This document shows positions 95 to 11,171 of a stretch of 39,007 nt of DNA, piece by piece (position 1 is the first letter of the stretch; the number at the start of each line of letters is the position of its first letter). The position numbers and the translations under genes were made by a program. This stretch comes from Pseudobdellovibrionaceae bacterium. GTDB lineage: Bacteria; Bdellovibrionota; Bdellovibrionia; Bdellovibrionales; Bdellovibrionaceae. The notes beneath the pieces are model-generated. The model saw only the letters and a list, made by a program, of their open reading frames with translations. It ran no database searches and had not been told where the DNA came from. The DNA lies in contig JBDHWW010000027.1 in NCBI GenBank assembly GCA_039810425.1, forward strand, positions 1-39,007, written 5' to 3'.

Positions 95-1459
95 TTAAAG
101 GGGCCAGTTTTTGAAGCGCACACGGGCTGTTGTTCCCCCGGAGTTATCCCAATGCAACTCCCAGCTATAGATCTCACAGATCGTCTTAACCCAAGCCAAC
201 CCAAGCCCAACCCCACCGACAGGACCCGAGCCAAGGCCCTTGTTAAAGGGCGCCCCCAAACGGCCGAGAACCTCATCTGGAATCCCCGGACCGTGGTCCT
301 TTACGATGAGTTCTAAATCACTGAACTGAACCTCCACCGCACCTTCAGAATACTTTAACGCATTCCCCACAAGATTGCGAATGACTTGCTCTAAATGAAG
401 TGGATTGCAAAGCACCAAGAAGTCTTTGCTGGGCAAAAGCCGAATTCGCCCGCTGAAAACCTTTTCGAAGTTCAGCTCCTCTTGTTGCCAAACACGGTCC
501 ACATGAACCGCATACAGATTGTCCACTTGACGCGATGAAACCGTTTCTGCCCAGCTTAAAAAGCCCGAGATCGTCTCTGAGATTTTATCAATGTTTGCCT
601 GGATTTCATTTTTAGTATCTTGATCAACACCATACCGCTGGGTCACTAACTCAAAATCACGATTTAAAATAGTCAGCGGCGTCTTTAATTCATGGGCCAT
701 CTGAAATGACCACGTCTTCATGAATTTGCGGTTTACATTAATTTTTTCGACCATGCCTTTTAAAACTGCAAGGAGATTCAAAAATTCATCACCATGAGGC
801 ACGGGCCCCGCCCCTACTTCAAGAGACATCGGCATCGCCGGCAAGTCCGCGTTGGCTTCAAAGGATTTTGTGACCGAATTAATATACAAAGCCAAAGAAT
901 GAATGGCAGAAAACAAGTACGAAGACAGCCCCCAGGTCAAAACAAGCATCAACGACAAAATCAGCGCCACCATCATCCAAGTCGTCTTACTGACATAGAC
1001 CAGAGACATCGACTTTGCATCGGTGATCACTCCCACTTGCATGGTCCGATTCGGAACCCGCGGCAAATCAAGATTCACCAAACGCACAAAGTACTTTGGC
1101 AAACTGAGCGTCACCCAGAGGGGCTTACGATCAATGTTGACCTCCAGGCGCTCGATGTTCTGCGTTTGAAAAAGGATTTCACCCGTCTGCTCGTTACGAA
1201 CGATAAAAAATTTATCAACGCTATCAGGCCCCAGTTCTTCTGAAATAATCTCGACGGCTTTTTCGTAGTCGTAGGTTTTAAGCTCCAGCAGCTTTGAATC
1301 AATGATCGCCGTCGCCGTTTGACGGATCTGATCGTCAATATAACTCAATCTCTCGCTATGAAAGTAGTAAAGCAAAATCACCCCGATGGATGCCATCGAG
1401 GTAAAAATCACCAAAAACGAAATAAGAAAAAACTTACGCCTCAAGCCAGTATCCCACAT
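95..1459 (-). CDS. Membrane sensor histidine kinase (HisKA + HATPase_c)
   Basis: Two TM segments; H-box MAHELKTPL, N-box NLVGNALKY, G1 DHGPGI, G2 GVGLGL. The ORF track starts at 1618, deep inside the RR gene; the real start is probably ATG 1459, ATG 1468 or TTG 1444, overlapping the RR stop. Confidence 0.92.
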   Translation of the reverse strand: MWDTGLRRKFFLISFLVIFTSMASIGVILLYYFHSERLSYIDDQIRQTATAIIDSKLLELKTYDYEKAVEIISEELGPDSVDKFFIVRNEQTGEILFQTQNIERLEVNIDRKPLWVTLSLPKYFVRLVNLDLPRVPNRTMQVGVITDAKSMSLVYVSKTTWMMVALILSLMLVLTWGLSSYLFSAIHSLALYINSVTKSFEANADLPAMPMSLEVGAGPVPHGDEFLNLLAVLKGMVEKINVNRKFMKTWSFQMAHELKTPLTILNRDFELVTQRYGVDQDTKNEIQANIDKISETISGFLSWAETVSSRQVDNLYAVHVDRVWQQEELNFEKVFSGRIRLLPSKDFLVLCNPLHLEQVIRNLVGNALKYSEGAVEVQFSDLELIVKDHGPGIPDEVLGRLGAPFNKGLGSGPVGGVGLGLAWVKTICEIYSWELHWDNSGGTTARVRFKNWPL

Positions 1460-2108
1460 TGCGGGCATTTTTGATCGCAACGCTCGCGGCGGAAGACTCG
1501 AGCTTACGGCGAAGATTATTAATCGTGGCTTCAACAACCTTCGTATCGACTTCCGCTTTAGAGTTCCAGATTTTTGAAAGTAAAACCTCGCGAGGATATA
1601 TCTTGCCGGGGTTTTCACAGAACAAAATCAGCAACTGGTATTCCTTTGCAGAAACCAACACGGACTCTTGCCCCACAAGAAGGCTACGGGATTCCTTATC
1701 CAGGGCCAAGTTGCCCAGCTCCACTCGGAGAGATGGCATCACATCTTTACGACGGTAAAGAGCCTTTATACGCGCCGACAGCTCAACTGCAGAAAAAGGC
1801 TTGGCGAGATAGTCATCAGCCCCCGCATCCAAAGCCCGGGCTTTCTCGAGCGGAGTATCGATTGCTGACACGATGATAATTTTCGTGTCAGCAAAAGTCG
1901 ATTTAATCTCGCCAATGAGAGAAACCGAATCCGTGTTTTGCAACAAACGGTCTAACACGATGACATGAGGATAAAATGACTTGCTTTTTAAAATCTGCTG
2001 CAGGGATATCGCACTGGTGGCCGTCTTTACCACGCCCCCCTCAGACTCGGCCAGGAACGTCATTTTCTTTAGAATTTCCACTTCATCGTCAACAATAAGA
2101 ATTTTCAT
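1434..2108 (-). CDS. OmpR/PhoB-family response regulator
   Basis: Receiver motifs ILIVDDE, VLD, GADDYLAKPF; winged-helix end INNLRRKL...RNVGY; coupled to the kinase. Confidence 0.95.
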   Translation of the reverse strand: MKILIVDDEVEILKKMTFLAESEGGVVKTATSAISLQQILKSKSFYPHVIVLDRLLQNTDSVSLIGEIKSTFADTKIIIVSAIDTPLEKARALDAGADDYLAKPFSAVELSARIKALYRRKDVMPSLRVELGNLALDKESRSLLVGQESVLVSAKEYQLLILFCENPGKIYPREVLLSKIWNSKAEVDTKVVEATINNLRRKLESSAASVAIKNARNVGYWLEA

Positions 2109-2169: not shown

Positions 2170-2187
2170 GTTAAAACATTTTTTAAC
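2170..2187. promoter_or_regulatory. Perfect 7-4-7 inverted repeat, candidate operator
   Basis: GTTAAAA-CATT-TTTTAAC, between the RR start and an extended -10 on the + strand. Confidence 0.45.
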
Positions 2188-2209
2188 CACAGAGATTGTG
2201 ATTTTAGTT

Positions 2210-2218
2210 TGGTAAACT
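2210..2218 (+). promoter_or_regulatory. Extended -10 promoter element for the sRNA candidate
   Basis: TG-G-TAAACT; no good -35, consistent with activator dependence. Confidence 0.45.
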
Positions 2219-2224
2219 ACTCTC

Positions 2225-2297
2225 AAAGAGTCGTTTAAAGACAGAGTAGATCCCCTACTTAGTTTTGCGGGCCTTGGGTTTCCATGGCCCGTTTTTT
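2225..2297 (+). ncRNA. Candidate ~70-nt small regulatory RNA
   Basis: Lies between an extended -10 and a + strand intrinsic terminator with no credible + strand CDS; internal hairpin AGTAG-ATCCC-CTACT; complementary to the RBS region of the gene starting at 2925. Confidence 0.55.
2267..2297 (+). terminator. Intrinsic terminator
   Basis: GCGGGCC(T)TGG-GTTT-CCA(T)GGCCCGT stem running into the T-tract TTTTTTATTT. Confidence 0.75.
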
Positions 2298-2310
2298 ATT
2301 TCTTCTAAAT

Positions 2311-2342
2311 AAAAACCCCGCGGGACAGACCACGGGGTTTTT
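2311..2342. terminator. Bidirectional intrinsic terminator ending the beta-barrel gene
   Basis: AAAAACCCCG(C)GG-GACAGA-CC(A)CGGGGTTTTT with T tracts on both strands, about 20 nt past the stop at 2365. Confidence 0.8.
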
Positions 2343-2364
2343 GATTTTTAAATTCTCTTCTATT

Positions 2365-2925
2365 TTAGAACAAATAACCCACGGTCAACATCGGCATCAC
2401 TTCATCATGGGTGTAGTGATCAAGAGCCGCGTTGTTTTCGTCCTTCTTGTAGGTGATCGTTCTATAAGTCAATTCGACGCCCACAATGAAGTTTCCGTTA
2501 ATTGCCGTGAGATACCCCAAATCGGCCTGATACCCCGAGCCCTGTTTATAATTCGTGCCCTCTGTTGCAGAGAAGATATAGTGTGCCATCGCATAAAACC
2601 CCGCAGACCCCACATAACCAATTGAGCCCGCCGTTGCAGAACCCGCAGTCGAAGAGCCTCCAGCATCGTGACTGCGTGAAGTGTACATACCACCGAGATA
2701 CCAGCCATCGCCCTCGAGATAGCCGAGCTTCACGTCGTACACAGCCCCTTTCGTATCAGAAGTCACCTTGGCCCCGCCGGACTGCGTTTCGGTTTTATCC
2801 GTATTGTAGAAACCGTTGAGCGTTAACAGCACGCCAGAACCGCCGCTGCCCCCGCGGGCCTGCGCCGTTGCGGCAAAAGCCAAAGAGGACACAAGAACCA
2901 GAGCAAAGAACCACGTGTTTTTCAT
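2365..2925 (-). CDS. Small outer-membrane beta-barrel protein
   Basis: Signal peptide ending AQA; amphipathic Gly/Tyr-rich strands; C-terminal BAM-type signal MLTVGYLF. Confidence 0.8.
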   Translation of the reverse strand: MKNTWFFALVLVSSLAFAATAQARGGSGGSGVLLTLNGFYNTDKTETQSGGAKVTSDTKGAVYDVKLGYLEGDGWYLGGMYTSRSHDAGGSSTAGSATAGSIGYVGSAGFYAMAHYIFSATEGTNYKQGSGYQADLGYLTAINGNFIVGVELTYRTITYKKDENNAALDHYTHDEVMPMLTVGYLF

Positions 2926-2934
2926 AAGTACTCC

Positions 2935-3762
2935 CTACTTGTTTGCGTTCAGAATCCATTCTGAACGGGACTCTAAGATTATACCCTGGGCCTGCAAATA
3001 AGACATCTTTTTCGCCCACTCTTCCCTCGGTAGTTGTGAATCCAATTCCATCATCAGGACCTGATCCAGGAGTTGGTCGAGGGTGTATTTTCTATCCTCC
3101 TGCAGCACATCGGCAATGGCCGCGTCCCACAGATCCATTTTATACTCCCCCCTCTTCTTGCGAGAATAGTCGTAATAAAAGACAGACAGCCCCGGAGACA
3201 ACTCGATCTCCGCGACCTCGTCCGCAGTGTAAAGGCTTTGTAACGAAGGGTTTACCAGTAATCGGCCTTGCTCCGCCGGGGGAAAACCAAAATCCGCAAA
3301 ACTTAAATAGGACCAGAGCCACTCTTTTTGCGCGATCAGATAAAGACGAGAGTCCTGGAATTTACGTTTCAAAAATACCGGTAAATAACGAAAGTGCGCG
3401 CTCCGCAAAGGTCCCTGCCACGGCACTTCCTTCATGTAGTCCTTGAGCAGTTCGCGCAAGCCCCCTTTCAGATAGGCCTCTGTCTGCGGGAACGCCTTTT
3501 TGAACTCTTCAAGTAACACTTCATGTAGAAATTCTGTTGGCGCAACAGGCAGCTTCACTGTCCGCACCGAGGTGGGTTTCAGCCACCGCAGGGTCTCCGT
3601 CAACAGCTCTTCGTGCAGGCTAGCCTGTGCCGTGGGCACAAGCTCTTTATGAATCAGAAGCTCCACCGGGGTTAGACCCGCCAGCAGTTCCTCTCGACGG
3701 ACTGCGCCTATGCCAAGAACGTCGTAATCCTTCAGCTGTCGAAGCTCGTGTTTTTTCATCAT
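2935..3762 (-). CDS. Hypothetical protein, possible DUF2063/HvfC-like domain
   Basis: 275-aa ORF; segment AFPQT...YMKEVP...LPVFL...LIAQKEW resembles the DUF2063 pattern (from memory); promoter-like TTGCGC-18-TAGAAT upstream. Confidence 0.6.
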   Translation of the reverse strand: MMKKHELRQLKDYDVLGIGAVRREELLAGLTPVELLIHKELVPTAQASLHEELLTETLRWLKPTSVRTVKLPVAPTEFLHEVLLEEFKKAFPQTEAYLKGGLRELLKDYMKEVPWQGPLRSAHFRYLPVFLKRKFQDSRLYLIAQKEWLWSYLSFADFGFPPAEQGRLLVNPSLQSLYTADEVAEIELSPGLSVFYYDYSRKKRGEYKMDLWDAAIADVLQEDRKYTLDQLLDQVLMMELDSQLPREEWAKKMSYLQAQGIILESRSEWILNANK

Positions 3763-9466: not shown

Positions 9467-10291
9467 CTACAGGCCTTGAACGAACTTAAGCACCTCGGCG
9501 GCATGCCCGGGTGCTTTGATTTTTCGGAACTCGCCAACGAGCTTCCCGTTCTCGTCAATCACGAATGTGCTGCGCTCAATACCAAGAACCATCCGTCCGT
9601 ACATATTCTTCTCTTTGATCACGTCAAAGATCTTACAGAGCGTCTCATCGGCATCCGACAGTAACTCAAATTTAAAATCAAATTTACACTTAAAATTGTC
9701 ATGCGACTTCACACTGTCACGGGAAACACCGAAGATCACTGTCTTTGCCCCGTGGAATTCCGAATAAAGGTGGTTGAACTCCTGCCCCTCGATGGTACAA
9801 CCCGGAGTATTGTCCTTCGGATAGAAGTACAAAACGACTTTCTTGCCCCGCAGGCTTGAAAGAGAAATATCCCCACTGTGAGTCGAGGGAATTGTAAATT
9901 CAGGAACCACGGCATTCAACTTCAGAGGGCTACCGGGTATTTTGGTCACGGTTTTGCTCGTGCGGGTCGAGGTCTTGGCCGTTGGCTGGGACGACTTCTT
10001 GGTGCTGCTCACCTTCTTGCGGCTGGCCTGGCTGAGGCGGCGGCTGGATGACTTGCTGCTGCTGGATTTCTTGCTGCTGCTGGATTTCTTGCTGCTGCTG
10101 GATTTCTTGCTGCTGCTGGATTTCTTGCTGCTGCTGGATTTCTTGCTGGTCTTCAGGGTGCGCCTGGTCGTTGCTTTCGATGACGCCTTCGTAAGGGTTT
10201 TGCGGCGGCCTTTGCTTTGCGGCTTTTGGCGCGCGGACGCCCCTGCTTTGCGGATCTTCTTGGCGGTCGATTTCTTTGCCGTTGCGGTCAT
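9467..10291 (-). CDS. bcp: BCP/PrxQ peroxiredoxin with long Lys/Ser-rich N-terminal extension
   Basis: YFYPKDNTPGCTIE and ERSTFVID motifs; start ATG 10291 preceded by SD AGAGGA at 8 nt; no in-frame ATG between it and the start of the Prx domain. The start position is inferred. Confidence 0.85.
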   Translation of the reverse strand: MTATAKKSTAKKIRKAGASARQKPQSKGRRKTLTKASSKATTRRTLKTSKKSSSSKKSSSSKKSSSSKKSSSSKKSSSSKSSSRRLSQASRKKVSSTKKSSQPTAKTSTRTSKTVTKIPGSPLKLNAVVPEFTIPSTHSGDISLSSLRGKKVVLYFYPKDNTPGCTIEGQEFNHLYSEFHGAKTVIFGVSRDSVKSHDNFKCKFDFKFELLSDADETLCKIFDVIKEKNMYGRMVLGIERSTFVIDENGKLVGEFRKIKAPGHAAEVLKFVQGL

Positions 10292-11171
10292 GATAGATAT
10301 CCTCTGCACTAATGGCTTCTGGGTTGGCGGTCGGAGAAACACTTGGCGCCGGTGTCGGCGTTGCAGGAACTTGTTTTGCCAGATATTCCGGCTGTTGCAA
10401 AGCCGTTTCCGTGACAGTGATCTTTCCATCCATAGGAACACTCACCTCGATCTTCTTCACAGGATCTAAGTTTTCCAAAACTTCCGCTTTGATATAAAGC
10501 ATATTCTTCGAATTCTTTTGATATTCGTACTGCTTAAATCGTAACACTTGGTTCTTCGCTGGATTGTAATCAATCATGAAACCATCACAGCTGAAGGTTT
10601 CAATGATGCCATTCTCCGTCGACTTCAATTTACAACTGATGCGCGGGCTTAAAATTCCCGTCGTAAAGCCTAAAACTTCGGATAAATTGCCACCACGGAA
10701 GTTCATCGTTAGCTCCTCAGCTTTGGCATGATTCCAATCGCCGATTTTAATAAAGCTCTCCTTCGTATTGCACTGATGCATCACTTCACCGTTTTGCGGA
10801 ACCCCGCTAAGACCAGAGACATTGCGGGTCATTGAATACACGTCACAGCGGAACAGAGATTTGTTCGACAGCTTTTGCTTCATATCCACGAGAAGCGCTC
10901 TTTGAAATTTCCCAAAAATAGATTTTCCTTGCGGCGCACGCTCCTGGCGAATCACCCAAAGCGATTCGCGGAAAATCGCATCCATCTGCTCGAACCAATG
11001 GAGAATTTTTTGTGCCTCACGGTCTGCGGGCTTCGTCACCGCCGGAGCTGCTATCGCATTCAGTTTGGAGACCGGCGTCGCAAGCGGGCTCTCAGGAGCT
11101 GCCTCTTTCTTTTTGAAAGTACACCCTGCACACAAAATGAGCATCATAAGACTGAAGAACAAAACTCGCAT
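9930..11171 (-). CDS. Lipoprotein of unknown function with Pro/Gln-rich C-terminal tail
   Basis: Lipobox LCAGC after a hydrophobic stretch; several Cys; tail (EIQQQQ)n overlaps bcp. Confidence 0.8.
   Translation of the reverse strand: MRVLFFSLMMLILCAGCTFKKKEAAPESPLATPVSKLNAIAAPAVTKPADREAQKILHWFEQMDAIFRESLWVIRQERAPQGKSIFGKFQRALLVDMKQKLSNKSLFRCDVYSMTRNVSGLSGVPQNGEVMHQCNTKESFIKIGDWNHAKAEELTMNFRGGNLSEVLGFTTGILSPRISCKLKSTENGIIETFSCDGFMIDYNPAKNQVLRFKQYEYQKNSKNMLYIKAEVLENLDPVKKIEVSVPMDGKITVTETALQQPEYLAKQVPATPTPAPSVSPTANPEAISAEDIYHDRNGKEIDRQEDPQSRGVRAPKAAKQRPPQNPYEGVIESNDQAHPEDQQEIQQQQEIQQQQEIQQQQEIQQQQEIQQQQVIQPPPQPGQPQEGEQHQEVVPANGQDLDPHEQNRDQNTR
10043..10148. repeat. 18-bp tandem repeat, about 6 copies
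   Basis: GCTGGATTTCTTGCTGCT x4 exact, one partial copy and one variant (GCTGGATGACTTGCTGCT). Confidence 0.95.

Follow-up and report, generated by a model that had tools for sequence, protein, structure and literature searches.

Several enterobacterial small RNAs (sRNAs), among them MicF, MicC and OmrA/B, are encoded by two-component-controlled genes that lie next to a regulator or an outer-membrane protein (OMP) gene. These RNAs depend on Hfq, expose single-stranded 5' seeds and pair in a conserved manner with OMP mRNAs.

Gram-positive bacteria possess sRNAs built around a UCCC motif. The LhrC sRNAs of Listeria monocytogenes are two-component-dependent, carry UCCC in their loops and block translation of an envelope-related mRNA with no need for Hfq, according to the excerpted account (PMC4132741). 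In Staphylococcus aureus, RsaE, RNAIII and other UCCC-motif sRNAs pair through an unpaired UCCC with the Shine-Dalgarno (SD) sequence, and the excerpted source describes their expression as Hfq-independent (PMC2790875). The noncoding RNAs described in Bdellovibrio bacteriovorus, namely APsRNA1-7, merRNA (PMC3627812) and the hit-locus sRNA (PMC3818213), are intergenic, and the excerpts of these two papers give neither a validated base-pairing target nor a two-component link for them.

We analysed a candidate sRNA in a contig of a Pseudobdellovibrionaceae bacterium (JBDHWW010000027.1; source genome G000); the window is the whole stretch studied, 39,007 nucleotides. By analogy, the candidate is predicted to work like LhrC and RsaE. 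It resembles LhrC in its UCCC loop, probable two-component link, predicted SD blocking and Hfq-free setting, whereas LhrC RNAs, as excerpted, are 111-114 nt long and multicopy with three CU-rich sites, and the candidate is about 68 nt long and single-copy with one loop. An unpaired UCCC is likewise common to the candidate and the staphylococcal RNAs, although phylum and regulators differ. The B. bacteriovorus RNAs come, like the candidate, from the predatory order Bdellovibrionales and span 98-655 nt in their excerpted descriptions, and it is by description, not by sequence comparison, that the shorter candidate is set apart from them. In contrast to MicF, MicC and OmrA/B, the candidate comes from genomes without detected Hfq, holds its seed in a loop and shows no conserved OMP pairing; the neighbouring OMP is a predicted beta-barrel, as expected for a target of that type, but neither conserved seed pairing nor Hfq was found.

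At the gathering threshold, Rfam gave no match in the window. The best match over the candidate was RF02345 (25.3 bits against a gathering score of 40), the alphaproteobacterial ar15 family, which also has UCCCCU followed by a terminator; this match skips much of the model, and nearby terminators of the ordinary kind reach equal scores with other families. LhrC and RsaE-type families were absent among the matches listed. The candidate is outside every Rfam family, and it is outside the MicF/OmrAB type. A search of open-access full text, as distinct from supplements, where RNA-seq tables might list the 3'-UTR version considered below, found no description of the RNA or the locus. The mechanism itself, a UCCC loop directed against the SD, is already known from Gram-positive bacteria; the locus offers a regulator and its likely operator, the candidate RNA, a putative small regulon made up of this RNA and a gene for a PsiF-like protein, and a testable B. 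bacteriovorus counterpart, and interest is heightened by the apparent lack of Hfq in these genomes.

The candidate comprises the following parts, with positions counted in the window and G005 denoting the one other genome that carries the RNA:

2230 to 2297, plus strand: candidate small RNA, about 68 nt (fold; conserved in G005; start placed from the -10 position)
2238 to 2266, plus strand: 11-bp hairpin with an unpaired AUCCC loop at 2250-2254, an anti-SD-like seed (predicted unpaired probability of the loop 1.00)
2267 to 2297, plus strand: intrinsic terminator of the candidate RNA (terminator scan; G005 comparison)

The plus strand from 2225 to 2298 has a folding energy of -26.9 kcal/mol (z -4.1), which none of 200 shuffles equals, and the minus strand over the same stretch has one of -22.4 (z -3.4). 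A first-pass annotation had proposed, from the letters alone, about 70 nt with no credible coding sequence, a core folding as a hairpin with an AUCCC-type loop and a plus-strand terminator at 2267-2297, all of which our computations bear out. The UCCC-loop hairpin is followed immediately by the terminator, and the only starts inside the RNA are weak, namely two TTG codons (12-15 codons, no SD) and one ATG within the terminator stem. An unpaired UCCC loop, a promoter of its own, an intrinsic terminator and the lack of an ORF, as predicted or seen by comparison, are features of UCCC-motif sRNAs. The core matches the 3' end of 16S rRNA, the anti-SD, at 10 of 12 bases, so partial pairing with many leaders or strong SDs is expected.

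The flanking genes all lie on the minus strand, and the plus-strand terminator standing among them speaks for the candidate:

95 to 1459, minus strand: sensor histidine kinase (HATPase_c E 1e-17; HisKA under cut-off; start codon taken from orthologous locus L062)
1434 to 2108, minus strand: OmpR/PhoB-family response regulator (Response_reg and Trans_reg_C domains)
2311 to 2342, minus strand: OMP gene terminator (z -5.6 on the minus and -5.1 on the plus strand; U runs on both)
2365 to 2925, minus strand: OMP, 186 aa (signal peptide, eight predicted strands, C-terminal Phe)
2935 to 3762, minus strand: gene upstream of the OMP gene, no assigned product (ORF list)

None of the best 25 NCBIfam families reached its cut-off for the regulator. 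The OMP had been called a beta-barrel at first reading, and structure prediction agrees, yielding an 8-stranded beta-barrel model (pLDDT 84) whose Foldseek matches are beta-barrels with few exceptions; OmpW and OmpA are among those with the highest TM-scores (about 0.45). A member of the 90% cluster to which the OMP belongs carries a Bdellovibrionales label. In the other five genomes of the genus, the sequence after the OMP gene differs and the candidate region is absent; no close regulator orthologue was found in these five, so that one of six genus members has it. Since the five congeners have neither, the regulator/RNA module is likely to be an insertion common to G000 and G005. Between the RNA terminator and the OMP terminator, G005 (L010) has about 41 additional bases with another GC-rich hairpin.

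Upstream of the RNA, we delineated the following elements:

2170 to 2187, strandless: palindromic operator, 7-4-7, core TAAAA-N4-TTTTA (orthologue comparison and matrix search)
2196 to 2201, plus strand: likely -35 box TTGTGA (TTG 8 nt past the operator in 20 of 20 orthologues)
2218 to 2223, plus strand: likely -10 box TACTCT (TAxxxT 16 nt past the -35 box in 19 of 20 orthologues)
2210 to 2218, plus strand: alternative extended -10, TGGTAAACT (the box of the first-pass annotation; hexamer 2213-2218)

The orthologue set consists of 20 regulators, 19 of the 22 matches among 384 genomes and one of 80 metagenome loci; the three weakest of the 22 and three further matches, which fall outside the clade in the tree (100/100), were left out, and the promoter layout was missing in the three excluded regulators that were scored. 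In all 20 loci, the operator lies 48-63 nt from the regulator start with 9-14 of 14 consensus bases, and when it was placed by consensus alone, TTG followed exactly 8 nt behind it in every case. A matrix built from 18 promoters, with G000 and G005 left out, ranked position 2170 first of 7,067,442 (score 32.8), ahead of the promoter of a 62-aa protein gene on contig C20 (25.0) and a site inside a coding region (22.9). A strict promoter pattern, which by construction misses G000 and G005, matched in 11 of the 44 genomes in genus g10, in each case at the regulator locus, and at two unrelated sites. The promoter/terminator scan gave no sigma-70 consensus promoter at the candidate. The palindrome and a promoter divergent from the OmpR-family pair, both noted at first reading, are thus conserved across the orthologues, while the proposed extended -10 fares less well: TGGTAAACT is present and kept in G005, but the -10 box is more likely 2218-2223, which would put the RNA start near 2230.

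Operator and regulator occur together in 20 of 20 loci; from this we judge it likely that the palindrome is bound by the adjacent response regulator, and we infer that the RNA is transcribed and that this protein activates it. A real, regulator-driven transcript seems to us highly probable. Public sequencing data are evidence neither way: contigs from three of eight runs match the locus identically in short pieces (1804-2268), and nothing over it came from two metatranscriptomes or from two RNA runs of doubtful nature. The regulator genes themselves (2100-2120 and the orthologous loci), inspected by eye, have no SD, and in many of them a hexamer resembling a -10 box stands about 6 nt ahead of the ATG, a hint that their mRNAs are leaderless.

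Of 384 genomes of the order, two contain the RNA core, namely G000 and G005. The exact 28-nt seed pattern had no match in the genome-contig collection, where a regulator profile search returned only distant regulators (28-35% identity), and a metagenome scan for further carriers gave one regulator orthologue among 80 loci. The G005 copy is identical over 28 nt around the seed, within a region of about 88% identity; the first hairpin keeps all 11 pairs and its loop with the same predicted fold, and the terminator shows one two-sided change, one one-sided change and one repaired mismatch. None of the five substitutions in paired columns breaks a plus-strand pair, whereas two of them would mismatch on the minus strand (G-U/A-U or C-G/U-G, kept on the plus strand only). 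A formal covariation check on these two sequences is without statistical power, since 257 of 500 shuffles score as high. Taken with the operator/promoter layout and the absence of a credible ORF, the fold and its conservation support a structured, ORF-less plus-strand RNA with an anti-SD loop at this locus.

Predicted targets were ranked with our own gene caller (3275 genes) and ViennaRNA cofolding rather than IntaRNA; comparison with G005 spans 2.24 Mb out of about 4.2 Mb, with 1324 of the 3268 genes, and may therefore miss targets that are better conserved. The leader of nagZ (identified by NCBIfam NF003740 over cut-off) contains a 12-nt perfect match to 2245-2256 that spans the whole loop and the SD. 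It ranks 1 of 3268 in G000 (-14.6) and best of 1324 pairs across both genomes (-13.1 in G005), and is identical in G005 over the 28 nt compared. The nagZ leaders of three congeners without the RNA reach only -2 to -5 kcal/mol (G006, where the start falls at a contig end, was left out), a contrast confounded by descent, as G000 and G005 are sisters. Among stem-randomised hairpins, 185 of 2000 had a match of at least 12 nt in some leader (p 0.09) and 63 of 2000 in conserved leaders (p 0.03); none reached the nagZ energy, out of only 33. No matching nagZ-start site was seen among the matches listed for four Bdellovibrio-type genomes with a UCCC 3' element. We regard nagZ as the best predicted target and as a tentative lead that may well prove wrong. 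A scan for avoidance of near-complementary sites showed a deficit of 3-mismatch matches relative to reversed controls in G000 (16 against 29) and G005 (8 against 39), but one also in G004 (10 against 28), and was discarded.

Hfq (PF17209) was not found in five of five genomes by a search that found it in 5 of 14 controls. In the mechanism that we propose, the phosphorylated regulator would bind the palindrome and switch on the 68-nt RNA together with the PsiF-like gene. The UCCC loop would make first contact with a GGGA or GGGG SD, and the duplex would then open one hairpin arm; the RNA stem is stable, and most of the predicted pairing requires it to open. Ribosome loading would thereby be blocked on a few mRNAs, with nagZ as the best predicted target, and Hfq would be dispensable. 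We assign a probability of roughly 0.6 to the reading that the RNA is a base-pairing, anti-SD RNA.

The orthologous loci point to the possible origin of this unit. In 17 of 20, the promoter drives a gene whose secreted product has 56-64 aa and two cysteines and is called PsiF in one source; the one protein tested had no match in Pfam, and an Atlas value of 0.84 is a lead only. The source genome retains such a gene elsewhere:

Contig C20 of G000, 61096 to 61355, plus strand: gene for a 62-aa PsiF-like secreted protein (same operator/promoter; far from the regulator)

The C20 gene is homologous to the PsiF-like proteins (E 2e-12) and is likely a second regulon member, judging from its promoter; no homologue was found in the 2.24 Mb of G005 searched. 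The three ORF-less loci (G000, G005, G142) are nested among ORF-bearing ones on two branches of the regulator tree, with moderate inner support (92/98, 89/88, 81/52), and two outgroup regulators also adjoin a PsiF-like protein gene; ORF loss is accordingly the likely direction of change, with a single origin of the ORF-less state standing as the alternative. By such comparison, the unit likely descends from a regulator-driven PsiF-like gene of Bdellovibrio whose ORF is gone from this locus.

Seven of the 17 ORF-bearing loci have, past the stop codon and directly before the terminator, a UCCC-loop hairpin in the same layout as in the candidate:

L153, 2506 to 2584, plus strand, with L154-L157, L148 and L151: UCCC hairpins in the psiF-like 3' UTR (Bdellovibrio-type genomes)

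The regulators of L153-L155 fall in a cluster named Bdellovibrio bacteriovorus, and the element, for which Rfam gave no match in L153, is a candidate 3'-UTR-derived sRNA. All three ORF-less loci have a UCCC-loop hairpin at the 3' end of the regulator-driven transcript; among the terminator-bearing 3' ends in G000, by comparison, 2 of 266 do. The second ORF-less transcript, in G142 (L158, 2292-2400, plus strand; genus g60), is about 100 nt long and C-rich, with a UCCCUUCA loop (z -3.4). The ORF-bearing loci closest to G000 are without the UCCC hairpin.

Sequence homology between the candidate and the Bdellovibrio 3' element was tried and set aside: two covariance models from seven elements, the first of which lost the hairpin through misalignment, gave the candidate 12.5 bits (E 0.48) and 11.7 bits (E 0.88), the latter below the score of an ordinary terminator, and a search of the whole genome returned no match to the candidate. 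Descent of the RNA from the 3' UTR is thus plausible by position and layout, not by sequence, and we hold it to be a possibility with the odds against it. Equally tentative is the fuller scenario of a regulatory RNA freed from a 3' UTR, in which one regulator-driven Bdellovibrio transcript holds both the PsiF-like ORF and a 3' anti-SD hairpin, the ORF was removed in two lineages and the promoter came to fire the RNA alone, with the ORF surviving elsewhere in G000 under a promoter copy, an Hfq-free mimic of the 16S tail that would link an envelope signal to peptidoglycan recycling through nagZ. If this is true, a 3'-UTR-derived version has gone unnoticed in B. bacteriovorus itself, where culture makes it testable; should the 3'-UTR origin hold, the locus is a clean natural case of the birth of a stand-alone sRNA. 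In 13 of the 17 3' UTRs (L062, L142-L146, L150, L152-L157; partly by eye), a hexamer, CTCGAC, follows the psiF-like stop, a candidate second seed or processing site.

The first-pass annotation had favoured a compact circuit in which the regulator induces the RNA and the RNA mainly represses the adjacent OMP mRNA, in the manner of MicF or OmrA/B. The sites concerned are:

2926 to 2947, minus strand: OMP ribosome-binding region, the proposed target (2935-2947 double as the final codons and stop of the upstream gene)
2947 to 2966, minus strand: stable OMP-leader hairpin with GGA in the loop, possible CsrA site (fold; identical in G005)
L162, 2495 to 2523, plus strand: leader of a gene for a 986-aa TPR-like protein, with a 5-bp SD hairpin as in the OMP leader and an AGGAU loop

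The OMP adjoins the RNA, and the reported resemblance of the core 2245-2269 to 2927-2947, with an exact 8-mer, is there in the sequence. An alignment score this high turns up in 5 of 400 random 3-kb windows of the genome and in 5 of 300 shuffles (p about 0.01-0.02), although the similarity was picked after the fact and, both stretches being hairpins, its two arm matches are not independent. The 8-mer occurs in 2 of 3275 leaders, and in G000 the leader of the OMP takes rank 38 of 3268 on duplex energy and rank 45 of 3268 on cofolding (-8.7 kcal/mol; top 1.4%). In G005, the only relative with the RNA, the complementarity is lost uncompensated: the seed is unchanged, yet the leader falls to -2.2 kcal/mol and rank 1097 of 1324, within the range of OMP leaders from seven RNA-less genomes (-1.6 to -6.6 kcal/mol), whereas, of the 30 best G000 leaders that have an orthologue there, 13 remain within the top 5%. 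All three leader changes within the proposed duplex favour pairing in G000, as a recent gain there or a loss in G005 would produce, but two of them are an Ala/Thr codon and the TAG/TAA stop of the upstream gene; the 8-mer itself is a Lys codon, this TAG stop (TAA in G005) and the GG of the SD. Six of the eight core partners are buried in the RNA stem, with two in the loop, and other leaders pair better. The TPR-protein leader matches more closely (32 against 25) also in the RNA-less G001, which shows that such leader matches arise without the RNA and led us to reject the TPR-protein gene as a target. The mRNA hairpin proposed beside the AUG appears in the minimum-energy fold of a 53-nt leader (frequency 0.08) but is absent from the centroid and replaced in the 73-nt fold. 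The OMP is predicted to be at most a weak, strain-specific target, and the compact circuit appears unlikely; recent gain of pairing in G000 is possible, as is a core that arose when the OMP leader was duplicated, with later escape in G005, and outgroup OMP leaders do not settle the direction of leader change.

About as improbable as the circuit is that the PsiF-like ORF left while promoter and terminator stayed, so that the transcript has no target and the region is kept as a control site for the regulator and an insulator. The narrow distribution of the RNA, the lack of significant homology to the Bdellovibrio 3' elements, the absence of a target far above the null and the homologous ORF elsewhere under the same promoter all fit a leftover of this kind, but the first hairpin, unneeded for termination, keeps its 11 pairs and loop, and the ORF-less G142 locus on the other tree branch also has a UCCC-loop hairpin. 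A real RNA that acts through a protein or another RNA, masking the GGA sites of CsrA or serving as a sponge rather than plainly blocking ribosomes, is less probable again. CsrA is present in five of five genomes tested and is functional in B. bacteriovorus, as stated in the excerpted source (PMC13443453). Hairpins of 5 bp whose 5-nt loop contains GGA, placed immediately ahead of the start, are enriched in G000 leaders (69 of 3275 against 36 +/- 7 in shuffled ones), which hints at a wider CsrA regulon or structured SDs, and the RNA is nearly complementary to two of them, those of the OMP and the TPR-like protein, but nagZ, the best predicted target, is without a GGA-loop hairpin. The plus-strand RNA contains no GGA and lacks the multiple GGA loops of CsrB/RsmZ-type CsrA sponges. 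Very improbable, finally, is a functional element on the minus strand, where a leader or read-through RNA would carry a CsrA-type hairpin with GGA in its loop. This strand does offer a 5-bp hairpin with GGGAU in the loop, and CsrA is available, but that hairpin lies immediately beyond the strong terminator of the OMP gene, the hairpin at 2267-2297 has its U run only on the plus strand, two G005 substitutions keep pairs only on that strand and the conserved promoter is directed the same way. The CsrA-type alternative raised at first reading remains plausible for the OMP leader but not for the candidate, for which we retain the reading as a base-pairing, anti-SD RNA.

The SD hairpin of the TPR-protein leader, kept in G005, G001 and G002, is a possible CsrA site; the genes ahead of this 986-aa TPR-like gene are presumably MotA/ExbB-like and ExbD-like. 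Elsewhere in the window, 9930-11171 (minus strand) encodes a likely lipoprotein of 413 aa in which about five QQEIQ-type repeats stand in tandem close to the C terminus.
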